Shown: positions 10,903 through 52,866 of the stretch, piece by piece
Layout: each line of letters starts with the position of its first letter
Numbering within the stretch: the stretch's first letter is position 1
Source of the DNA: Opitutales bacterium
Lineage (GTDB): Bacteria; Verrucomicrobiota; Verrucomicrobiia; Opitutales; JABSRG01
Length of the DNA: 64,000 bases
Reading direction: 5' to 3'
Assembly (NCBI GenBank): GCA_049599475.1
Contig: JBMYOQ010000002.1
Coordinates: forward strand, 64,001-128,000
Program-made: the position numbers and the translations under genes
Notes under the pieces: generated by a model
Databases searched by the model: none
Told to the model about the DNA's origin: nothing
Seen by the model: the letters and a program-made list of their open reading frames with translations, nothing else

Positions 10903-11122
10903 AGCACCTTCGTTCTATCCGTATACTTTTCATTAACGAACCTAATTGTTTGTAAAAGGTGTATTAGTTTATGTTCTTTTGGGCTTTATTAGAAAATCAA
11001 ACGGATTAGCGGTCTCAAATCCCACAAATTTCCACATTTATGGATTCTTTGGAGAGGGAATTAGAAGGGTTTTTGATAATAAAGATTGCCGACGAGTGTT
11101 CAAAAGTCTGACTGGGCCTCGT

Positions 11123-11788
11123 ATGAACGACGGTCATTCTGAACTCACTCACGAAAGCCTTTCCGAAACATTTGATACTTTAAAGCGAACCCAGGTCGCT
11201 GAAGAGGGGATTCGAATGGGTAAAATCGTCGATGCCGTAGCAGATCGTGGATTCGGTTTTATCTTAATGCTTTTAGCGTTACCAAGTGCGTTGCCAGTTC
11301 CCGCGCCGGGTTACAGTACTCCCTTTGGTATCGCGATCGTGCTACTAGGCGGACAGTTGATTGCGGGTGCACGCACTCCTTGGCTTCCTGAAAAGGTGCG
11401 TAATCTAAGTTTAAATAAAGGGATCGCAGAAAAGATGCTGTCTGCCGCGTCCAGCTTTTTGAAGAAAGTGGAGCACATTATTCAGCCGCGGATGCGCTGG
11501 ATCACTTCCCGTCAATCTCGACGCATCTTGGGAATCATCATTGCAGTGATGGGCTCACTCATGATTTTGCCTATCCCGCTTACCAATACATTCCCTGCAA
11601 TGGTTGTGTTTGCGTTGGCCATCGCGATTGTCGAAGAGGACGGTCTGGTGGGTATCGGAGCACTCGCTCTCGGGTGCGGGGCGGTGGCTCTATATGCAGT
11701 CATCATATATTTCGTGATCACTCAGGGCACGGAGGTGATCGATGTGGCGAAGGATCAAATTAAAGAGTGGCTGGGCCTCTCGGCTTGA
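11123..11788 (+). CDS. exoD: ExoD-family membrane protein
   Basis: DRGFG...LPSALPVPAPGYSTPFG...PWLP...LPIPLTNTFPA; the ATG at 11123 is preferred over the TTG at 10946. Confidence 0.88.
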   Translation: MNDGHSELTHESLSETFDTLKRTQVAEEGIRMGKIVDAVADRGFGFILMLLALPSALPVPAPGYSTPFGIAIVLLGGQLIAGARTPWLPEKVRNLSLNKGIAEKMLSAASSFLKKVEHIIQPRMRWITSRQSRRILGIIIAVMGSLMILPIPLTNTFPAMVVFALAIAIVEEDGLVGIGALALGCGAVALYAVIIYFVITQGTEVIDVAKDQIKEWLGLSA

Positions 11789-11818
11789 TTTGAGTGTTCA
11801 TTGAGCTAAGTTTTCCCA

Positions 11819-12247
11819 ATGCCTTCAGGACTCGCAGAAAAACGTCAGGCTCTCGCCGATGAGCTATCCTTTATCGAAGACCCGTATGAACGCTTCGCCT
11901 ACATCATAGATTTGGGCAAGCAACATCCTGCGGTTGCCGATGAATTTAAGAGGCCCATGTTTGAGGTGGAAGGGTGTACCTCGCAGCTCTGGCTTGTCCC
12001 GGAATTCAGGGAAGGGCTCTGCCATTTTCACTGCGATGCAGATGCGCAGATCGTCAAGGGCATTGCGGCCGTTGTGTGCACGTATTACTCGGGAGAAGAG
12101 CCTCAGGAGATTATTGATAACGAACCTGACTTTTTGGGCGAGCTCGGCATCACTCAGCATCTTTCTTCGAGCCGACGTAATGGCCTAGGGCTGATCCGCC
12201 AAAAGATAAAGGCGTTCGCAGAATCCTGCCTGCGCGACCAGGCTTAA
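11819..12247 (+). CDS. sufE: SufE/CsdE Fe-S sulfur-acceptor protein
   Basis: VEGCTSQLW, DADAQIVKG, LSSSRRNGL. Confidence 0.93.
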   Translation: MPSGLAEKRQALADELSFIEDPYERFAYIIDLGKQHPAVADEFKRPMFEVEGCTSQLWLVPEFREGLCHFHCDADAQIVKGIAAVVCTYYSGEEPQEIIDNEPDFLGELGITQHLSSSRRNGLGLIRQKIKAFAESCLRDQA

Positions 12248-12258
12248 GCCTTCTTCCT

Positions 12259-13056
12259 ATGGCCGCCTTGATTGATGCCCATTGCCATCTACAAGATGCG
12301 CAATTGGCGTCTTATCTAGAGGAGACACTCTCCAGCGATATCTCGACTTGGCTAGTGAATGGGACGAGCCCGTCGGATTGGGCTGCCGTCGCCTCTCTGT
12401 GTGAGCGCGATGATCGCATAATTCCGGCCTTTGGATGGCATCCTTGGCATGTATCGCGAGAAGCACCTGCGATGCAATTCGATACTCTTCTAAAATATCT
12501 CGAGCTGTATCCACGGGCGCATGTCGGAGAGATTGGGGTGGATCGCTGGAAGGCGGGACTGGATGAGGGTGCGCAAGTTGAGACTTTGGTCGTTCAGCTA
12601 GAGATAGCCGCTGCAGCGGGTCGACCCGCTACGGTGCATTGTCTCAAGGCATGGGGGCTACTCGAAGAAGCTTGGAAGCGCGCGCAATCTAAGCCGCAGC
12701 GCATCTTGCTCCATGCTTTCAATGGTTCCGCCGAAACTGCGCAAGTCTGGCTGAAGCGAGGGGCATTTTTCTCCTTTTCCACTTACTTCATTCATGCGCG
12801 TAAGTCGGCGATAAGAGAGATTTTTAGAACTTTGCCGACGGAACGAATACTTGTCGAAACGGATGCGCCGGCGATGTCTCCTCCCTTGTCCGAATGTATC
12901 CGTCCGATTGAGACAGTAGAGGGAAATGAGATTAACCACCCATTAAACCTGACGGCGGCGTACCGTGCTCTTGCTCGATTACGCTCAGTTGATTTTGATG
13001 CACTCGTCACTCAGGTGGCAGACAATTTTAATGCATTTGCGGAGGTGTCTTCATGA
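12259..13056 (+). CDS. tatD: TatD-family nuclease
   Basis: IDAHCHL, GWHPW, VGEIGVD, VHC, LHAF, ILVETDAP. Confidence 0.92.
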   Translation: MAALIDAHCHLQDAQLASYLEETLSSDISTWLVNGTSPSDWAAVASLCERDDRIIPAFGWHPWHVSREAPAMQFDTLLKYLELYPRAHVGEIGVDRWKAGLDEGAQVETLVVQLEIAAAAGRPATVHCLKAWGLLEEAWKRAQSKPQRILLHAFNGSAETAQVWLKRGAFFSFSTYFIHARKSAIREIFRTLPTERILVETDAPAMSPPLSECIRPIETVEGNEINHPLNLTAAYRALARLRSVDFDALVTQVADNFNAFAEVSS

Positions 13057-13541
13057 GCCAGACATGGATCGTGGATGGGCATAACGTGATTCACGCTAGG
13101 CCCGATCTTCAAAAGTTGTTGCGAGATGACTCAACAGGTGCGTCTGCCCAACGTGTATTGATAGAGCAGATACGCATCTTTGCGGATTTTGGGAGTGCGG
13201 GAGTAAAGGTCGCCTTTGATAGTGGGCACCTTAAAAGCCTGAGCGAAAAGTGGCAAGAGCGCCAGCGTAGCCGAGGCGTTGAGATACATTATGGTTCGGC
13301 GGAAGAGCAGGCGGATACCATTATTGAGCGTTGGGTCGTTGCCTGCTCGGACCCAAGTAAAGTGTTCGTGGTTACGGAGGATCGGGCGATTCGCCATGTG
13401 ATTGAGGCTGCCGGTGCTTTCTCTGTATCAGTCCAAGAGTTTACGCAACGGCGTGCTGCATTAGAAGTCCAGCAATCGAGGATGCTTAAGAACCAAAATG
13501 CACGAGCTGCTGATGATTTTAGAAACGGACTGCCGCTCTAG
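13053..13541 (+). CDS. NYN-domain (YacP/Rae1-like) ribonuclease
   Basis: WIVDGHNVI, VAFD, ADTIIE, VVTEDR acidic motifs. Confidence 0.85.
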   Translation: MSQTWIVDGHNVIHARPDLQKLLRDDSTGASAQRVLIEQIRIFADFGSAGVKVAFDSGHLKSLSEKWQERQRSRGVEIHYGSAEEQADTIIERWVVACSDPSKVFVVTEDRAIRHVIEAAGAFSVSVQEFTQRRAALEVQQSRMLKNQNARAADDFRNGLPL

Positions 13542-13574
13542 AAACGAACGGTTTCGAGTTATCAAAATTTCACC

Positions 13575-13940
13575 ATGGAAACAGAAAAAGAGAGGAGAAT
13601 GTCTTTCACCTTCGATCGATTGATCGACCAAATTATTGCGGGTGTAAAGACAGCGAGCACAGAGCGTGTCGACAACCAGGGAGAAGTCGACGAATGGGAT
13701 AGCGCGATGGAAGTCGGTGCCGTTTACACAGTCTATGATTCGAAGCGGGTGCCGCGCTGCAAGATACGCATCACCTCAATTCGTTTGTGCCAGTGGTCAG
13801 ATATTCCGGAGTGGCTGTGGCGGGGTGAAGGTAATTCAAATGCGGAAGAGTTTCGTGAGGATCATGATTCTTTTTTCGATTTCCCCGGGGCAGACTTTGA
13901 GTTTGTCGGTTATGAGTTTTGCTTGCTGTCTGTTCTTTAG
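13575..13940 (+). CDS. ASCH-domain protein
   Basis: LIDQIIAGVKTAST and RGEG motifs. Confidence 0.8.
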   Translation: METEKERRMSFTFDRLIDQIIAGVKTASTERVDNQGEVDEWDSAMEVGAVYTVYDSKRVPRCKIRITSIRLCQWSDIPEWLWRGEGNSNAEEFREDHDSFFDFPGADFEFVGYEFCLLSVL

Positions 13941-13988
13941 GGCTTGTCGGAATTGACTCCTTGCGCTGTTCTCTCGTGCTTTGCACGC

Positions 13989-14354
13989 ATGTACGCTTCG
14001 CTCCATAGTCTTTCGTATGCTCGCCGTTTAATAAGCGGCCTGCTTGCGGTGTGGCTGTTTTTGGCGACGCTGGGCACGGTGAGCCCTGCGATGCACGCTT
14101 GGTTGCACGGGCATGCGCACGACGGTGAATCTTGTGGCGAAGTTCACCACCATGGCGAAGTGGCTCACGATGAGGAGCATGTATGCGCGGTGACCATTTT
14201 GGCATCGGATGCTTCGGCGCCGGCCGCGGCCGTGAGTCTCGTTTTCGAGAGCAGCCTCTTTTACCAGGCTATTTCCTATGCTGAGCAGATAGATGCTCAA
14301 GGCAAAGACCTATATACTCGAAGCCGGGCCCCGCCAATAGACGCGTTGATGTAA
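13989..14354 (+). CDS. His-rich leader protein with one hydrophobic segment and C-terminal RAPP motif (DUF2946/CruR-like)
   Basis: Hydrophobic stretch, HAWLHGHAHDGESCGEVHHHGEVAHDEEHVC, ends SRAPPIDALM; 61 nt upstream of a TonB-dependent receptor. Confidence 0.75.
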   Translation: MYASLHSLSYARRLISGLLAVWLFLATLGTVSPAMHAWLHGHAHDGESCGEVHHHGEVAHDEEHVCAVTILASDASAPAAAVSLVFESSLFYQAISYAEQIDAQGKDLYTRSRAPPIDALM

Positions 14355-14365
14355 GCTGTGAATTC

Positions 14366-14393
14366 GCGACGCATCCGTCGCTTTCCATCTTTT
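14366..14393 (+). promoter_or_regulatory. Terminator/attenuator-like hairpin between the leader ORF and the receptor
   Basis: GCGACG-CATC-CGTCGC perfect 6-bp stem followed by TTTCCATCTTTT. Confidence 0.5.
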
Positions 14394-14415
14394 AAAACTA
14401 CAACTCGTCTTTAAA

Positions 14416-16641
14416 ATGCACTTTTCTCTTTCCAAGAGCGTGGTCGCCGTATGTGCCTGCTCACAAACTCTAATTTCATTCGCTCAGAATAGTTCCGAAG
14501 ACATTCAGGAGCTCGATAAATACACTGTCTCAGTGGGGCCTGTTCCTAGACTCGCTGAAGACTTTTCTCAGCCAGCGTCCATCCTAACATCAGAGGATCT
14601 GGAGAACGAAACTGCTGGGACCCTTGGCGGGATCCTGGCAGATCAACCAGGGCTCACAGCCAGCAGCTTCGGTGCAGGTGCGAGCCGCCCGATTATCCGC
14701 GGCTTCGATGGCCCCCGAGTTAAAGTCTTGCAGGCTGGACTCGAAGCGGTCGACGTCTCTTCTAGCAGCCCCGACCACGCGGTTTCTTTGGAGGCACTCC
14801 TCACAGACCGTATTGAAATTATCCGTGGACCTGCGGCTCTCCTTTATGGAAGCTCGGCAATTGGCGGTGTCGTCAATGTAGTAGGCTCGGATATCCCACG
14901 CGAATTTCGTGACGGCAGCTATGTCGGTGGGAAGGTTGAAGCGCGCTTCGACACGGTCTCCGAAGGTGAAACATTCCTCGCTCAAGGCACTGTAGGTGGC
15001 GACAACTGGGCGATTCGGGTGACAGGGCTCATGCGGGACGCTGAAGACTACGACATCCCAGGGTATGCCGAAATTCACTCCGATGAGGAGCACCATGATG
15101 AAGACGAAGAACATCATGATGAAGAGGAAGAGCACGACGAAGACGAACACGAAGAGGAGGAGCATCATGACGATGAGCACAGCGAAGAAGAAGTCTTCGG
15201 AACTCTCGAAAATAGCTTCGTCGAAACAGAATCTTACTCAGTAGGTGGCAGCTGGTTTTTCAATGATTCTAGCTTCTTGGGTGCTTCGATCTCTCAATAT
15301 GATTCCCTCTACGGAGTGCCTGGGCACGCCCATGAGCATGCTCACGAAGAGGAACATGATGAGGAGCACCATGACGAGGATGAAGAACATCATGATGAGG
15401 AAGAGCACGATGAAGAACATGGTGACGAAGAGGAGCATGGAGATGAGCACGGCGAAGAAGAGGAAATGGTCTCGATCGACCTCAAACGCACGCGCTTCAA
15501 TCTAGAACTATCCATGGGTGAACTGCCTGATTGGATCTCCGCACTGCGCGCACGTGCCTCTTACACTGACTACGAACACACTGAACTCGAAGGTGATGAA
15601 ATCGGAACGGTCTTTGAAAATGAAACAGCAGAGCTCCGCGTTGAAGCGCTGCATGGGTCATGGTTTGGGGCTGATGAGGGCGTTCTCGGGGCCCAATGGA
15701 AAGTAAGCTCATTCTCTGCAGATGGAGCTGAGGCGTTTGCGCCTGCATCTGAAACTGAAACAATGGCTGTATTTGTCTCAGAGCGCGTAGAGCTCGAGCA
15801 ATTGAGCTTCGAATACGGGGGCCGGTTGGAGCACCAAGATTCGGATGCAGAGAGCGATGCTTCAGATTATTCGGAAGTTGCTCTGAGCCTAGCTGTAGGA
15901 GCTGTGTATTCGATTTCAGATACAAACTCGGTAGCACTATCCCTCCAGCGTGCCCAGCGCCACCCTACAGCGATTGAGCTGTTTGCTGATGGTCCACACT
16001 TGGCGACCCGCCAGTACGAAGTCGGGGATGATTCTCTCGATATCGAAACGGCCCACAGTATCGACCTCAGCTACCGCTTAGACTCTGCGGATTGGGGAGG
16101 TAGCCTTACACTGTTCTTCGCGGATTTTGACGACTACATCTTTGCCGAAAATACCGGAGAAGAGGAAGACGAACTTCCCGTATACCAGTTCGGTGCAGTC
16201 GATGCGCGCTTCTGGGGTTTTGAAGGCGAGCTCGACCGTATTTTCGAAATGAGTCACGGAGCCGAGTTGAAATTGGGTGTCATTGGAGATTGGGTACGCG
16301 CAGAGGCGACAGATTCGAGCGAGGATCTGCCACGGATACCTCCATTGCGCCTGGGCGCGCGTATGTCTTACGATCTCGATGGTATTAGCCTGGGATTGAA
16401 GTTGAGACAGGCTTGGGACCAAGATCGTACCGGCGCCTTCGAGACAGAGACCGACGACTATACTGAATTTGATGCGACCCTCGCATACACCTTTGAGGCT
16501 TCTGAAAATGTGGATATGACGATCTTTATCCGTGGTGAAAATCTACTGGATGAAGAGATTCGCCACCATACTTCATACCTCAAGGATCTAGCTCCACTCC
16601 CAGGACGGAATGTGACGCTCGGAGCTCGCCTAGAGTTCTAA
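14416..16641 (+). CDS. TonB-dependent outer-membrane receptor, ZnuD-like (Zn or other divalent metal uptake)
   Basis: Signal peptide, ASRPIIRG, IEIIRGPAALLYGSSAIGGVVN plug, PRIPP, terminal F; two His/Glu/Asp tracts. Confidence 0.92.
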   Translation: MHFSLSKSVVAVCACSQTLISFAQNSSEDIQELDKYTVSVGPVPRLAEDFSQPASILTSEDLENETAGTLGGILADQPGLTASSFGAGASRPIIRGFDGPRVKVLQAGLEAVDVSSSSPDHAVSLEALLTDRIEIIRGPAALLYGSSAIGGVVNVVGSDIPREFRDGSYVGGKVEARFDTVSEGETFLAQGTVGGDNWAIRVTGLMRDAEDYDIPGYAEIHSDEEHHDEDEEHHDEEEEHDEDEHEEEEHHDDEHSEEEVFGTLENSFVETESYSVGGSWFFNDSSFLGASISQYDSLYGVPGHAHEHAHEEEHDEEHHDEDEEHHDEEEHDEEHGDEEEHGDEHGEEEEMVSIDLKRTRFNLELSMGELPDWISALRARASYTDYEHTELEGDEIGTVFENETAELRVEALHGSWFGADEGVLGAQWKVSSFSADGAEAFAPASETETMAVFVSERVELEQLSFEYGGRLEHQDSDAESDASDYSEVALSLAVGAVYSISDTNSVALSLQRAQRHPTAIELFADGPHLATRQYEVGDDSLDIETAHSIDLSYRLDSADWGGSLTLFFADFDDYIFAENTGEEEDELPVYQFGAVDARFWGFEGELDRIFEMSHGAELKLGVIGDWVRAEATDSSEDLPRIPPLRLGARMSYDLDGISLGLKLRQAWDQDRTGAFETETDDYTEFDATLAYTFEASENVDMTIFIRGENLLDEEIRHHTSYLKDLAPLPGRNVTLGARLEF

Positions 16642-16708
16642 TCAAGCTCTGGTCGACCGAGATAGAATATCCTTCCTCATTTATTTCGAAGGGCATCGAA
16701 AACCAGCG

Positions 16709-16740
16709 GGGGGCTTCGTTTACGGAGCTCCCTTTTTATT
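16709..16740 (+). terminator. Rho-independent terminator of the receptor gene
   Basis: GGGGGCTTCGT-TT-ACGGAGCTCCC followed by TTTTTATT. Confidence 0.8.
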
Positions 16741-47382: not shown

Positions 47383-50300
47383 ATGTCTTGCCCTTGGCTT
47401 CCCCTTGGTTTACCCAGCGCGCGTTCGCGTACCCACTCTAGACTCGTCCTTGCGACTTCGACTCTTCTCTTCAGACTAATCACCCTCCTGCTCCTGCCTG
47501 CGACCCTGCTGAAGGCTGAGATGGGGCATATGGAACACGGGGCCCACATGGAGCATGCGGCCCCGATGGATCAGATGGATCACAGCCATCATGATACCGG
47601 GATGCATGATAATGCGCACGCGAGTATCTTGCTGCAAGTCTCTCATGATAAGGCTACGGTGACTTCGGCCGGTAGCGGGAATTGGTTCGAAGACTCTACC
47701 TGGCATGGAGGCGTTCCTGGAGATGGGGCCCGTGTTGTCATCGGTTCTGAGCATACGGTTACCTTGAATGGTGTCTCGGACGCCAAGCTGATTACTTTGA
47801 GGGTCGACGGACACTTAGTGTTCGCAACGGATCAGAATACGCAGCTGATCGTCGATACAATGGTGGTCGGCGAACACGGTAGCCTCACTGTGGGTACGAA
47901 CGCGAATCCGGTCCCTGCAAACTTGACGGCGAAAATTATTCTGGAAGCGTACAATGGCTTGGGCTTTGAGACGGAGGATCATATGTCTGATGATTTCGAC
48001 CCCTTCCAGGTCGGCTTGGGCCTTATAAGTTTCGGGCGTGTGGAGATGCATGGTGCCAACAAGCTACATGGGGGTACCTTAAATGTGGAACCTTCCGTGG
48101 ATGATTTGACTATTAAGTTGGATGAAAAAGGCAAAGGCTGGAGGGTTGGTGATACCATCGCCATTGCAGGCACGAACCGAGACGGCCTTCAAGATGAGGT
48201 AAGGGAGATAACTGCGATCAAAGGTAGAAAGCGTGAGATCCATTTTGAAGGTGAGTTGCTCTACAACCACCACACTCCGACGTATGATAAAGCGCGGATA
48301 AGTAAGCGAGAATTAGAATTGAAAGTACATGCGATAAATCTCACACGTAATGTCTCTATCGAGACACCGGAGGCATATCGTTCTCCATTTCCGGATGTTT
48401 TCATCAAGATGGACGATAGACATCCGTTTAAGCGCTATGAGCGTCGCGCTCATGTCATGTTCATGCATACGAACGATGTGGATATCCGGTATGTTGGGTT
48501 CTACGGACTGGGCCGGACGAATAAAATCGTTCGCAACGACGGTACAGCAGTAAATGAGGATGGCACCTATTACATCGGGTTGAATCCTATTGGGCGCTAT
48601 TCCATGCACTTTCACCAAGCCGGATGGGGACCCGAGTCTGTTGATACACCGCCTGCTCGTATCGAGGGCTGTGCGCTAATAGATTCGCCGGGTTGGGGCT
48701 ATGTTAACCACAGCAGCCACGTCGGATTTTATCGAAATGTTGCACATGGGGCGAGAGCCGCAGCGTTTGTTACGGAAGCTGGCGATGAGCTAGGCGAGTT
48801 TATTGAAAATATATCGATACGGAATGATATCGATGAAGAGCACGGTAGCGGTGATCTGCGTTTTCAAAATCGGAAAAAGAGAGATGAGTTCGCATTCGGA
48901 GGGCATGGTTTCTGGTTTCAAGGGATCAATATAACTGCCATTGATAACGTCGCATCCGGTTGTGGTCGTGAAGGTATGACACTTTATCCCTTACCACTGC
49001 CAGGTAAGCTGAGAGGTGCTTTCCCCATGGCGCGCGTCGATACCGAGAATCGAAATTATGCAAAATTTGGAGATGCATTGGGAGCCGGATCAGTGCCTGT
49101 CCGCGAATTTCGAGGCAATATTGTCTATGGCTCGAATATCGCACTTATGCTGGGCGAGCATAGGCCCGTAGATTATTCGCATGTGGATAAGTTTCTCGGG
49201 TGGTCAGTCAGAATGGGCCTGAGTTCCAATTATTCTGCTGCCATTAAATATCGAGATATTACCTTGATTGGGGATGTTGCATTTCCTGAAGGCTTGGCCT
49301 CATTCGCGCATCACGGGACAGGTGACGTACAGTTTCTGAACCCTCACATCGAGGGGTTTTCTTTGGGAATTCAGATTCCACGAAGCGGGTTTAGTGGAGC
49401 AAATCGCACGACCGATGATGAAGAGTCAGAAGCTGGCGATGGAGAGTTTGACAGTGGGAATTTCGCTACGGCTTTCCAATACAGCCTGATTGAGAATGGT
49501 TTTTTCAATAACTACATCAATTTACACTACGCACTTGCGCGTGGAAAACTCCCATTGCTTGTCGATATTATTAAACCAGAGTTTGGAGACCTTACACGAG
49601 ATGTGGAGACCCTTCCACAAGGTACCGAGGCAGAAATTGAGTATTACAATACTATCAAAAAGGCCCAGGCTCGTGGCCTCGCGGCGCTAGCGGAAATTCA
49701 CCAAGAAAATGATTTTGATATCGATGCCAGTGAGAAAGACAGCAATGGCTTTGGGGAGCTGATGGATTTGGTGAGGAAGGAGGATACTTATGATGACCCT
49801 AATCCGAGGCCAATCACCCGGCCGTATAATTATCTCTTCCATGATGTGTCGAATCCTCACGCGAGAACGGGGACCAAGATCCATTTACGCGATAATTCCT
49901 TAGCTTACCGATTTTTTGTAACGGAGGCGGACGGCCGTCGATACCAACTATTTATTGAAGATGTGCAAAGACGGGAGCATATACCGTATAAGAAAATATG
50001 GAAAGATGAATACAAAGGGAATCCTGAATACGAGATAGATGGAAAGCCCGATTACAGCACTTACTTCCCAGAGGAGTATGTGGAGAAAAATGACGACAAA
50101 CGTGAAAAAATGATCTCTAAGCGGGATAGAGAGTATCATGCTAAGGCTCCGGAGGGTATCTTGGATTGGACCCCGGAGGAGCTATTTGCGAGTCTCACGC
50201 CCGAAGAACAAGCGACGTATCAGGACGATTATGATGCAGAGGATAAGACACCTTTTGTCGAAAAGGTTTATAAAAACCTCTATAATCTGAAGAAAGGTGC

Positions 50301-52866
50301 ATATTTCGGTTCAGATCGCGTTTTGGTGCATAAGGGCCGTGGTATCCCCCAGGAGTTTTATTACATTAGTAATGAGGAAATTAATACAGTTTTCCAGATG
50401 AATGCCCATAAGAAGACATTGCGTACATTGTTTGTTCCTGGAGACCCGGAGAATTATCCGACTGGCGCGGCATCCATTGCTGGCTTTATGTTGCCAAAGG
50501 ATTATGAATCTATCGACCGATACGAAGATGGGGTGAATGATTGGGATTATGAGTCTTCCTACAATGTAGTCGCTATGCGCGTCGAAGATTTGGATCATTA
50601 CGTCACATATCTTGATGAACCGAACAAGCCTCAGGCCGACTTTAGTTTTGATATTCAAGGCAACCCTTTGAAGTATCGCTTAGACCATCCTGCTGCTCGC
50701 CAGAGGTTGCCGATAGATCTCGAGTATCAGCAGATGCCTGATGGAGGCAAAACGCTCTTTCTCCCAGGGAAACTCTATGAGCATAGTCCGGAGAATCCCT
50801 TGTGGTTTCGTCAGCCATTCCCATTACACTACAAGACATTCGCAGTCTCGGCATTCTTTCGCCCGATGAAAACGGATTCGGGTGTATTGATCGAATGGGC
50901 AGATTCTGGAGATTCCGGCTACCAAATCGCGTTAGAAGATAATGAAATTGTAGCGACGCTGCGAACTAGCGCATCTCGAGTCACAGAGGTGAGGGGTGGC
51001 GTCGAGCCGGATGAGAGTGTTGTGACGGCTAATGACGAACCTCTGGTTCCTGGAGAGTGGTATCATGTGCTTATGTCATATAATTTTGGGCATGGAATGC
51101 TCTATCTCTACGTGAACGGAAAGCTTACGGCCCTTCAAGAGGTGCCTATTTGTGAACATAGTGAAGCGGAAGGCTTCGACGTTACTCTAGGAATGGGTGA
51201 TGAAGCGTTTCCGCGCACCGATGCATATCGCGGATTTATCGATGACCTTCAGATTCTTGAACGCTCTTTTACGAATTTCGCAGCAAGAAATTTTTATGAA
51301 GAGAGACTGCTTTCCGAGGGCGGGATAGCACGCTTTATCGACGGCCCAAACTCGGATATCGATGGTGATGGGTTGATCGATTTACTGGATCCCTTCCCAG
51401 TAGACGGAGACGAGACTGTTGATGCGGATCAAGATGGATTTGGTGATAACAAAAGTGATCCGAAACCCGGAAAGTCGCATAAGCCCGATAGCGATGGTGA
51501 TGGTATTCGTGACGAGTTTGATGCTTTTGATAATAATATAGCTGAATGGAGCGATACCGATGGTGATCTCATCGGGGATAATGACGATCGCGATATTGAC
51601 GGAGATGGCTTTGACAACGAGAAAGACCACTTGCCTTATGATCGCTGGGAATTCGCAGATACCGATGGCGACGGTGTCGGGGATCGTTCAGATGCTTTCC
51701 CCGAAAATCCGTATGAATGGTCCGATGTGGATGGTGATGGAGTCGGTGATAATGAAGATGCCCTGATGTATAGCGCCGCGGATTCCATCGATAGCGATGG
51801 AGATGGCTGGGGGGATTTAGTAGACCTTTATCCCTTGTCACCATACTTCAATGACGAAACCAATATATTAAATAATGGCGATGCCGAGGACGGCATGAAC
51901 GGATGGGAAACGCGAAATAACGGCGCTGACAATCCTATCTCCTCCATACGACCAAACTCTGGAAACGCGTCATTCTATATGGTCAATGACGAAAGTAACA
52001 GCCCTTCACTCATCGGGAGAGATTTTGACCCTCCCGAAAATCCAATCGAGGGCGGGTACTATCCGGAATCCATCAAGGTTGTGAATATCAGCGGTAAGGT
52101 GAGGGTTGAAAAGATTATTACCAACAAACTAGATAAGGTGCAAATTCTCGTTAAATATAAACAGGGAATTGAAGGAAGGACTAAGACTTTTTCAAAGACC
52201 GTACAGTATCGAGAACCGGTCTGGACCGATTTTAATTTCGATGTGACGAACCTCTCGAGCGTTCGTGGCATTGAGGAGATAAAATTCGTTAACCAGCAAA
52301 ACGGGATGAATGTATTTTTGGATGACATTCAGGTGCTTGTAATCGAAAGTAGTGAAGATCTAGATGGAGATACAATACCTGACTATTTAGACCCTGATGA
52401 CGATGGAGATGGGTATGCTGACGGTGAAGATGAAGACCCTCGGAATTTTCATATAAGAGGTGATCTTGACGGTGACGGTGTTGATGACAGCGTTGATGAT
52501 GACGTGGACGGCGACGGTATACTAGACGCCATCGAGGTCGCCCTTGGTTTAAACCCTCGATTCCAGCCCGATGGTCTCCTGGATCATGATGGAGACGGCC
52601 AGACCACAGCTGCTGAGATTTTGGCAGGAACCAATCCGACAAACAGAGGCGAGCGATTCGAGCTATTCCAAGACGTTATAGGGGATACGGTTAGATTCTT
52701 TTGGAACGGTAATGAGGCTAAAGCTTATGATATCGAATATTCTGAGGATCTGATCGAGTGGTTGCCTGCCCCGAATGGCCAGGGATTGAATGTCTTGGAC
52801 GGATACACAAAGCCCATGTCTTCAGAAGACGAATTATTATTTTATCGGGTGCGAATTGATGAATGA
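47383..52866 (+). CDS. G8 / beta-helix / LamG / TSP3 / CBM protein (paralog 3) with His/Met-rich N-terminus and internal insertions
   Basis: GRYSMHFH, GWGYVNHSS, FVTEAGDE, SFAHHGT, DxDGDG repeats, ends YDIEYSEDLIEW...FYRVRIDE. Confidence 0.85.
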   Translation: MSCPWLPLGLPSARSRTHSRLVLATSTLLFRLITLLLLPATLLKAEMGHMEHGAHMEHAAPMDQMDHSHHDTGMHDNAHASILLQVSHDKATVTSAGSGNWFEDSTWHGGVPGDGARVVIGSEHTVTLNGVSDAKLITLRVDGHLVFATDQNTQLIVDTMVVGEHGSLTVGTNANPVPANLTAKIILEAYNGLGFETEDHMSDDFDPFQVGLGLISFGRVEMHGANKLHGGTLNVEPSVDDLTIKLDEKGKGWRVGDTIAIAGTNRDGLQDEVREITAIKGRKREIHFEGELLYNHHTPTYDKARISKRELELKVHAINLTRNVSIETPEAYRSPFPDVFIKMDDRHPFKRYERRAHVMFMHTNDVDIRYVGFYGLGRTNKIVRNDGTAVNEDGTYYIGLNPIGRYSMHFHQAGWGPESVDTPPARIEGCALIDSPGWGYVNHSSHVGFYRNVAHGARAAAFVTEAGDELGEFIENISIRNDIDEEHGSGDLRFQNRKKRDEFAFGGHGFWFQGINITAIDNVASGCGREGMTLYPLPLPGKLRGAFPMARVDTENRNYAKFGDALGAGSVPVREFRGNIVYGSNIALMLGEHRPVDYSHVDKFLGWSVRMGLSSNYSAAIKYRDITLIGDVAFPEGLASFAHHGTGDVQFLNPHIEGFSLGIQIPRSGFSGANRTTDDEESEAGDGEFDSGNFATAFQYSLIENGFFNNYINLHYALARGKLPLLVDIIKPEFGDLTRDVETLPQGTEAEIEYYNTIKKAQARGLAALAEIHQENDFDIDASEKDSNGFGELMDLVRKEDTYDDPNPRPITRPYNYLFHDVSNPHARTGTKIHLRDNSLAYRFFVTEADGRRYQLFIEDVQRREHIPYKKIWKDEYKGNPEYEIDGKPDYSTYFPEEYVEKNDDKREKMISKRDREYHAKAPEGILDWTPEELFASLTPEEQATYQDDYDAEDKTPFVEKVYKNLYNLKKGAYFGSDRVLVHKGRGIPQEFYYISNEEINTVFQMNAHKKTLRTLFVPGDPENYPTGAASIAGFMLPKDYESIDRYEDGVNDWDYESSYNVVAMRVEDLDHYVTYLDEPNKPQADFSFDIQGNPLKYRLDHPAARQRLPIDLEYQQMPDGGKTLFLPGKLYEHSPENPLWFRQPFPLHYKTFAVSAFFRPMKTDSGVLIEWADSGDSGYQIALEDNEIVATLRTSASRVTEVRGGVEPDESVVTANDEPLVPGEWYHVLMSYNFGHGMLYLYVNGKLTALQEVPICEHSEAEGFDVTLGMGDEAFPRTDAYRGFIDDLQILERSFTNFAARNFYEERLLSEGGIARFIDGPNSDIDGDGLIDLLDPFPVDGDETVDADQDGFGDNKSDPKPGKSHKPDSDGDGIRDEFDAFDNNIAEWSDTDGDLIGDNDDRDIDGDGFDNEKDHLPYDRWEFADTDGDGVGDRSDAFPENPYEWSDVDGDGVGDNEDALMYSAADSIDSDGDGWGDLVDLYPLSPYFNDETNILNNGDAEDGMNGWETRNNGADNPISSIRPNSGNASFYMVNDESNSPSLIGRDFDPPENPIEGGYYPESIKVVNISGKVRVEKIITNKLDKVQILVKYKQGIEGRTKTFSKTVQYREPVWTDFNFDVTNLSSVRGIEEIKFVNQQNGMNVFLDDIQVLVIESSEDLDGDTIPDYLDPDDDGDGYADGEDEDPRNFHIRGDLDGDGVDDSVDDDVDGDGILDAIEVALGLNPRFQPDGLLDHDGDGQTTAAEILAGTNPTNRGERFELFQDVIGDTVRFFWNGNEAKAYDIEYSEDLIEWLPAPNGQGLNVLDGYTKPMSSEDELLFYRVRIDE

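Follow-up and report, generated by a model that had tools for sequence, protein, structure and literature searches.

A 64,000-nucleotide stretch of the genome of an Opitutales bacterium (assembly GCA_049599475.1, contig JBMYOQ010000002.1, positions 64,001 to 128,000), referred to here as the window, contains a two-gene unit in which a short open reading frame (ORF) of 121 codons precedes the gene for a ZnuD-like TonB-dependent receptor. We propose, with a probability of roughly 55%, that the short ORF encodes a leader peptide that stalls its own ribosome and turns on translation of the receptor when zinc is scarce, with zinc releasing the stall.

The proposal starts from features present in the DNA itself: the anatomy of the leader, a fixed distance between a cysteine and a C-terminal RAPP motif, purifying selection on the leader, and a receptor that retains the zinc ligands of ZnuD. 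By analogy with CruR, ApdA, and ApdP, the ribosome would arrest with the two proline codons of RAPP in its P and A sites, where it is computed to cover the 5′ arm of an mRNA stem that would otherwise hide the receptor start region. Because stalling would open the start region, the stalled state would be the one in which the receptor is made. Since the receptor serves uptake, metal should end the stall, which is also the proposal for CruR (PMC9426467) and the opposite of CutF. The hydrophobic helix of the leader would guide the nascent chain into the Sec channel, and His36/His40 and His64/Cys66 would together bind a single Zn ion immediately beyond the ribosome tunnel. This tunnel holds about 35 to 40 residues and, since 46 residues separate Cys66 from the arginine of RAPP, Cys66 would have just left it. 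With His36 and His40 where the inserted helix ends, zinc closure would pull on the chain, and this folding would free the ribosome, allowing the stem to re-form and uptake to fall. Comparison among genomes suggests that the leader could take the place of Zur at the receptor gene. A fuller reading stands at about even odds: a His3-Cys site in the nascent chain would read envelope zinc and set receptor synthesis through a stem over a start without a Shine-Dalgarno sequence, this switch would be evolutionarily interchangeable with Zur at the receptor gene, and the ZrgD genes of Vibrio would be leaders of the single-cysteine type too.

The leader peptide and its relatives

Coordinates of the two-gene unit are window positions on the + strand. 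The leader ORF (13989..14354) begins with ATG, ends with TAA, and encodes a predicted ribosome-arrest peptide; an alternative TTG start at 13944 would extend it to 136 residues. Residues 13 to 31 (14025..14081), preceded by Arg-Arg, form its one strong hydrophobic segment (hydropathy 1.77), a helix that would serve as a signal anchor or signal peptide. Two pairs of predicted metal ligands follow: H36-x3-H40 (14094..14108), which lies on a short helix and is assigned from conservation, and H64-x-C66 (14178..14186), where the second cysteine of a CxxC motif is replaced by threonine (C66-A-V-T). The predicted arrest motif RAPP occupies codons 113 to 116 (14325..14336), followed by five sense codons and the stop, and a gap of 61 nt leads to the ATG of the receptor gene (14416..16641), which encodes 741 residues with two His/acid-rich inserts. 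A sequence-only reading of this DNA had described the ORF and its length, the hydrophobic segment, two cysteines, the position of RAPP, the length of the gap, and the TonB receptor, and all of these were confirmed.

A search for the receptor in 151 genomes gave 31 genomes with a match and returned 30 loci, of which 24 have a leader whose C-terminal end carries R[AGS]PP, two lack upstream DNA, and four have no leader. The motif is conserved upstream of receptor orthologs, as that reading would have it. A profile built from these 24 leaders produced 130 matches in 123 of 401 genomes of the order, and 125 of the matches were analyzed, the remaining five being already in the first set of loci. The same profile matched 1007 library representatives at E ≤ 0.001, and a larger leader profile applied across the phylum matched 60 of 401 genomes, 51 of them in the same order.

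In all 125 leaders a cysteine lies 45 to 49 residues before the position of the motif's arginine, and in 124 of them the motif is at most nine residues from the stop. Both prolines, His36, and Cys66 are invariant among 124 aligned leaders despite a mean column identity of 25%, and His40 is present in at least 90%. A strict HxxxH motif occurs in 99 of the 125 leaders, a helix with a hydropathy of at least 1.6 in 116, and a second hydrophobic stretch after the cysteine in 30; a second cysteine at +3 of the conserved one is found in one leader and in 2 of 150 library representatives. The motif itself appears as RGPP (46), RAPP (44), CGPP (16), RDPP (9), RSPP (4), QAPP (3), HAPP (2), and MGPP (1), and its codons draw on all six arginine and all four proline codons across the set. 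The CGPP form (L091, L096, L103, and 13 more) is also seen in the CxxC leaders L241, L243, and L254. The leader is usually present in single copy, on the same strand as and directly before uptake genes, and a pooled ratio of nonsynonymous to synonymous substitution rates of 0.36 over 19 leader pairs (range 0.15–0.97) indicates that it is under purifying selection.

The window leader contains ten histidines in addition to Cys49 and Cys66. According to the sequence-only reading, the CxxC motif known from copper leaders was replaced here by HVCAVT plus a histidine tract. The loss of the second cysteine holds up, but the tract (residues 42 to 60) and Cys49 sit in a linker that varies among 122 leaders from 7 to 38 residues, with 0 to 6 histidines and 0 to 3 cysteines. 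We therefore rejected the tract and Cys49 as core metal ligands, leaving H36, H40, H64, and C66 as the likely set.

Among 9324 stop-to-stop frames of 90 to 250 residues in the genome, six have R[AG]PP at most ten residues from the stop, and the window leader is the only one of the six that adds a cysteine 45 to 49 residues upstream and a hydrophobic helix. Two further RAPP/RGPP matches before long genes, on contigs C39 and C28, proved to be off-frames of coding genes and were set aside as chance. A homolog search with the single leader sequence recovered only itself among 37 candidates, and neither Pfam (at E ≤ 1) nor NCBIfam contained a model matching the window leader. Its nearest clusters in the ESM Atlas are unnamed, with three matches carrying DUF2946 on 12% of their members, and all structure matches had template modeling (TM) scores below 0.35. 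Two AlphaFold models of the leader place helices at approximately residues 7–31, 33–39, and 67–75.

The receptor, the Zur-like box, and the case for zinc

The best NCBIfam model for the window receptor is ZnuD (NF038289), which scored 472 bits, the best of 34 models but below the model's cut-off of 950, and its best match in the PDB is ZnuD (4rdr, E 1.4e-54). The high-affinity zinc ligands of Neisseria ZnuD are Asp99, His100, Glu340, and His499 (PMC4557270), and they align with Asp120, His121, Glu390, and His528 of the window receptor. These residues are retained in 110/110, 110/110, 105/108, and 85/85 receptor relatives, respectively, which supports the earlier assignment of the receptor to a zinc type. 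Its nearest named relatives are from Opitutales (Coraliomargarita, Lentimonas, and Puniceicoccaceae), and in a tree it clusters with genomes of its own order.

The leader stands directly before a ZnuD-like receptor gene at 111 of the 125 loci. The other 14 leaders precede ZnuA/AztC-type ATP-binding cassette (ABC) operons (two), ABC operons with a DUF3299 (ZrgE-like) gene (two), a gene for a His-rich lipoprotein like the one within those ABC–DUF3299 operons (one), DUF3526 permease genes (one), choice-of-anchor M genes (one), other TonB receptor genes (six), and a contig edge (one). No copper genes and no HupE/UreJ genes were seen behind the 125 leaders. Five leaders (L107, L111, L128, L135, and L137) precede a second type of TonB receptor that gave no Pfam plug match, as scanned for L107, and L149 precedes yet another type. 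At L089 a gene for a Fur/Zur-like regulator lies directly 3′ of the leader-receptor unit.

A palindrome was found 5′ of 19 leaders, 18 of which belong to one family. In the window genome its second and fourth best sites precede a COG0523 operon and a HisI gene, and its first and third best sites precede unrelated genes. On contig C98 (L255:2351-5920) the palindrome is followed by an oxidoreductase/Gate-domain/COG0523 operon that converges on a Fur-family gene, and on contig C39 (L256:2960-5130) it stands before the HisI gene, beside a second COG0523 gene. Genes of the COG0523 type and HisI paralogs commonly belong to Zur regulons (PMC2770081); therefore, the palindrome is likely a Zur box and these two loci likely form the Zur regulon of the window genome. 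None of four Fur-family proteins reaches a curated Zur cut-off, and the one on C98 is called Zur-like solely from its position beside COG0523. Two palindrome-like sites on contig C39 (~12050-12250, minus strand), 5′ of another TonB receptor gene, differ from the Zur-like box and are possibly bound by another Fur-family regulator.

Near the window leader the best palindrome score is −7.2, so that no Zur-like box is present. Across Opitutales, box and leader tend to alternate: seven of eight leaderless receptor loci have a palindrome above 22 bits within 100 nt of the start, with the eighth at 8.4 bits, whereas only 1 of 34 leader-bearing loci in the same independent set has one above 11 bits. 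Among these loci are at least two duplicates and two with little sequence upstream; three loci lacking upstream DNA were excluded. Receptors with only a box occur at approximately four places on a quick tree, one of them nested among leader-bearing receptors with 99% support. Outside Opitutales, a Zur-type pattern was present in 51 of 56 leaderless homologs, which are not independent since most are from Stenotrophomonas; of eight leader-bearing homologs, six lacked the pattern and two matched it poorly. The comparison suggests that the leader replaces Zur control at the receptor gene.

The leaders of family f23 (L095, L098, L100-L102, L106, L108-L110, L112, L116, L118, L120, L124, L129, L130, L133, and L139), have an altered His motif (HxxxxH), RGPP or RDPP, and a strong Zur-like box, and mostly lack the stem that would hide the receptor start. 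In this family, the leader has perhaps ceded control to the repressor or has another output.

The metal had been given by the sequence-only reading as zinc, nickel, or cobalt. Zinc is the best supported of the three and nickel and cobalt less so, because the ZnuD ligands are kept, the alternative control is a Zur-like box, and most of the exceptional leaders stand before zinc-uptake genes.

The predicted mRNA stem and competing explanations

Folding of 14325-14430 predicts that a 5′ arm (14339..14362) pairs with a 3′ arm (14383..14410), with a z score of −2.1. The 5′ arm begins two bases after the second proline codon, so that its first part would be under a stalled ribosome, and the 3′ arm ends 6 nt before the receptor ATG. 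Between them lies an inner hairpin of 6 bp with a 4-nt loop (14366..14381) that resembles GC-rich inner hairpins of relatives, and the 61-nt spacer is predicted to be mostly paired. The stem was assessed at 108 distinct loci, given that 109 of the 125 passed the start heuristic and one duplicate was dropped. When the 22 nt after the proline codons were paired with the 32 nt before the ATG, cognate duplexes averaged −12.3 kcal/mol compared with −7.1 kcal/mol for non-cognate arms, and at 55 loci, the window included, the cognate arm outperformed 95% of non-cognate arms. We then masked the bases that would lie under a ribosome whose P and A sites hold the proline codons, as placed in PMC10951233 and PMC12992588. 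In the window, opening positions −20 to +5 costs 7.9 kcal/mol without the mask and 1.6 kcal/mol with it; a decrease this large was seen in 1 of 150 control gene pairs. Drops of at least 4 kcal/mol occurred at 46 of the 108 loci and in 5 of the 150 controls, which were taken from 270 ordinary gene pairs of the window genome and had a mean change of 0.07. Shine-Dalgarno enrichment is absent from this genome (11% compared with 12% in the control, from 1519 long ORFs), and a Shine-Dalgarno sequence is found at 2 of the 108 receptor loci and is missing from the start region of the window receptor. The stem would therefore act by hiding an A/U-rich start region. The CruR-like control put forward by the sequence-only reading is retained in part, with a RAPP-type leader and CruR-like spacing, but the output looks more like a CutF- or SecM-like translational stem than like the Rho attenuation of CruR.

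Several observations weigh against the proposal that the leader is a zinc-released arrest peptide. Stalling, zinc binding, and regulation are all predictions from sequence, analogy, and computed folding. The motif counts are biased towards the 24-leader profile that selected the leaders, and related leaders are not independent. His64 is present in 72 of the 125 leaders and the complete HxxxH and HxC set in 69, and the arginine of the motif is absent from the 22 leaders with CGPP, QAPP, HAPP, or MGPP. The AlphaFold models are of modest quality, with a predicted local distance difference test score of 70, a predicted TM score of 0.44–0.46, and ligand geometry that is not usable. The arm-pairing test gave no cognate stem at 53 of the 108 loci, mainly in families f38 and f23, and pairing in fixed register, assessed at 29 loci belonging to one family, gave a marginal result (0.58 compared with 0.49 ± 0.03, with a shuffle maximum of 0.58). 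Other outputs may therefore exist. Leader and box occur together at 25 of 124 leader loci, 19 of them in the training set, and thus are not exclusive, and the assignment of the palindrome to Zur, although likely, is made from context. Loss of the second cysteine is no marker for a metal, because CxxC leaders also head ZnuA-type genes.

If the same zinc-sensing arrest peptide worked through Rho attenuation, as in CruR, or through the inner hairpin and a pyrimidine run, the missing start-hiding stem at about half of the loci would be accounted for. The Rho RNA-binding domain is found twice in the window genome, and cytosine outnumbers guanine over the stretch that begins at the RAPP codons and includes the spacer (in some cases by 24 to 14 or 22 to 11 per 78 nt); C exceeded G at 36 of 109 loci, counted without a null. 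However, the spacer is 61 nt long and mostly paired, unlike the unstructured rut site and 162-nt spacer of CruR (PMC9426467), and the effect of the mask on the start region is far above controls, making this output unlikely. We consider it slightly less likely again that the metal sensed is a different one (Ni, Co, Cu, or Mn), or more than one, with the leader tuning broader uptake. Sites made of His and Cys can bind more than one metal, CutF-like clusters with His alone are found before HupE/UreJ Ni/Co genes (PMC9973294), the receptor scores under the ZnuD cut-off, and six leaders stand before other receptor types, one at L149 and five before another. Against this, all four ZnuD ligands are kept, the control that alternates with the leader is a Zur-like box, and neither copper nor HupE/UreJ genes were seen behind the leaders.

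RAPP peptides entered the literature as monitors of protein localization (PMC10951233), and a leader that reports on Sec or membrane insertion capacity, like SecM and ApdP, would couple receptor synthesis to export, with its His and Cys residues incidental or structural. The second hydrophobic stretch in 30 of the leaders would fit such a role. Nevertheless, the invariance of His36 and Cys66 at so low an overall identity, the metal-uptake rather than sec genes behind the leaders, and the alternation of leader with a metal-regulator box make a Sec monitor improbable, somewhat more so than a sensor of another metal. Purifying selection and the abundance of histidine could also reflect a stand-alone periplasmic or membrane zinc-binding protein, in which RAPP and the stem have no role in receptor control. 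We regard this as the least probable of the explanations, and a very unlikely one, because the cysteine-to-RAPP distance is fixed while the sequence between varies freely, the motif stays close to the stop, the stem begins at the stall site, and the gene usually occurs once, in the same orientation as and immediately before uptake genes.

A probable −35 element for the leader-receptor unit, TTGACT (13953..13958), is suggested by enrichment of TTGAC in relatives, where it lies 120 to 170 nt 5′ of the first conserved histidine at 72 of 120 loci compared with 2 of 120 in a control window. A scan for sigma-70 consensus promoters listed no site at the unit, and Rfam gave no match at E ≤ 1 in 13500-14600. 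An intrinsic-terminator-like hairpin with 11 pairs and a T run (16708..16733) ends the two-gene unit. Upstream, on the same strand, a run of ExoD, SufE, TatD, NYN/YacP, and ASCH genes (10946-13940) apparently lies outside the unit, because the genes 5′ of the leader vary among relatives. Elsewhere in the window, 47383-52866 encodes a secreted-looking protein of 1827 residues with a His/Met-rich N-terminal stretch and C-terminal Asp-rich repeats.

Comparison with known systems

Metal-sensing arrest leaders have so far been shown only for copper, in CruR and CutF, and the CruR paper states that neither Cu nor Zn has a known riboswitch (PMC9426467). The general kind is already known, with RAPP leaders described before TonB receptors and non-copper CutF-like sensors anticipated for Ni and Co. 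In the chiefly open-access literature that we searched, we found no paper linking a leader of this kind to zinc or naming ZrgD as an arrest peptide. New here are the box-or-leader pattern, a controlled stem test in a genome that does not use Shine-Dalgarno sequences, a corrected ligand set, and the parallel with ZrgD. If the proposal is correct, a post-transcriptional zinc sensor would be able to stand in for Zur at the principal receptor for uptake in roughly one third of the genomes sampled from an order that is abundant in the environment, and it would read the metal in the envelope, not the cytoplasm. With its defined residues, stall site, and stem, the system would offer a natural comparison with the copper leaders for how a nascent chain chooses its metal.

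CruR (Bp2923), a DUF2946 protein of Bordetella pertussis, is encoded before the TonB-dependent transporter gene bfrG, and BfrG responded to Cu when tested against Fe and Zn (PMC9426467); arrest of CruR has been shown (PMC12992588). Both leaders have an export signal, a cysteine motif whose distance from the C-terminal RAPP is constant, and a TonB receptor gene as the next gene, and in both stalling is expected to turn expression on and metal to turn it off. RAPP begins 45 residues after the second cysteine of CruR and 48 after the first, compared with 46 in the window leader and 45 to 49 in its family; RAPP lies five residues from the stop in the window leader, which also has the N-terminal hydrophobic segment of DUF2946 leaders. 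In contrast, CruR has CxxC rather than a single cysteine with HxxxH, its receptor is of a copper rather than a ZnuD type, the genes behind the window leader are of a zinc-uptake type and not a copper operon, and its output depends on Rho acting at the rut site, where the short paired spacer of the window unit points to translational control. The expected link to DUF2946 failed for the window leader, which lacks CxxC: neither it (E ≤ 1) nor its genome matched PF11162. Matches were obtained for 5 of the 24 first leaders at E ≤ 10, for 4 of 124 relatives at E ≤ 0.001, and in 15 of 401 genomes of the phylum, mostly in CxxC leaders with a similar His motif. Five DUF2946-positive leaders align with the window family at 96.9%, with Cys66 on the first cysteine of CxxC, which suggests that the window family is derived from such leaders by loss of the second cysteine. 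The simple rule that CxxC denotes copper and a single cysteine zinc was rejected, as the genes that follow CxxC leaders in this phylum include a ZnuA-family gene and genes for His-rich outer-membrane proteins and TonB receptors.

CutF of Rhodobacter capsulatus, encoded before cutO and a member of 29 CutF-like clusters (PMC9973294; bioRxiv 10.1101/2025.02.05.636593), is likewise a metal sensor that acts as an exported nascent chain; when it stalls, a stem in the mRNA opens over the start of the following gene, an effect that for the window leader is computed only. The window leader agrees with the filters used for CutF-like proteins (PMC9973294) in being shorter than 150 residues and having a signal, PP within the last 15 residues, and a same-strand neighbor within 1000 nt; a start-shielding stem is predicted for it and for about half of its relatives. 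CutF differs in having CxxxC and PPP, a stall induced by copper, and a detoxification target with a Shine-Dalgarno site, whereas in the window RAPP goes together with an uptake target, a start that makes no use of a Shine-Dalgarno sequence, and a zinc context. The main texts on CutF do not mention zinc, although His/Cys variants and non-copper signals (Ni, Co) are anticipated there for CutF-like sensors (PMC9973294), and the 29 clusters may already list the family described here. The signal sequence is dispensable in CruR and required in CutF.

Small ORFs with RAPP or RGPP before TonB receptor genes are described as universal in Gram-negative bacteria by Fujiwara et al. (PMC12992588). The window leader shares with them, and with ApdA and ApdP (PMC10951233), the motif, its position near the stop, and a localization signal. 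The text of Fujiwara et al. describes no zinc assignment, sensor motif, or RNA switch for these ORFs, and the CGPP, QAPP, and HAPP variants of the window family do not appear in it.

A parallel in a zinc context is ZrgD (DUF2607), the product of the first gene of the Vibrionaceae zrg operon, which is repressed by Zur and induced by zinc limitation, and a protein described as being of unknown function (PMC9817125, PMC6103462). All four DUF2607 loci found among 151 genomes (L260-L263, ~1450-1770 in each) encode a single-cysteine HxCxLF motif and an R[AS]PP end. At these loci HxCxLF lies approximately 44 residues before R[AS]PP, a Zur-type box is found on the 5′ side, and a His-rich ZrgA-like gene follows. 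ZrgD and the window leader share a hydrophobic helix, a His cluster, and zinc-uptake genes behind, with HxCxLF and R[AS]PP two to four residues before the stop in ZrgD, which differs in having a Zur-type box as well. None of 124 leaders matched PF10795 (DUF2607) at E ≤ 0.001, and profile alignment of the window family with the four DUF2607 proteins (hhalign) gave a weak 48.7%. Because this similarity is weak, the parallel is one of shared build, with homology unproven. By this build, the DUF2607 proteins are likely unrecognized arrest leaders, which would give the family a candidate function.

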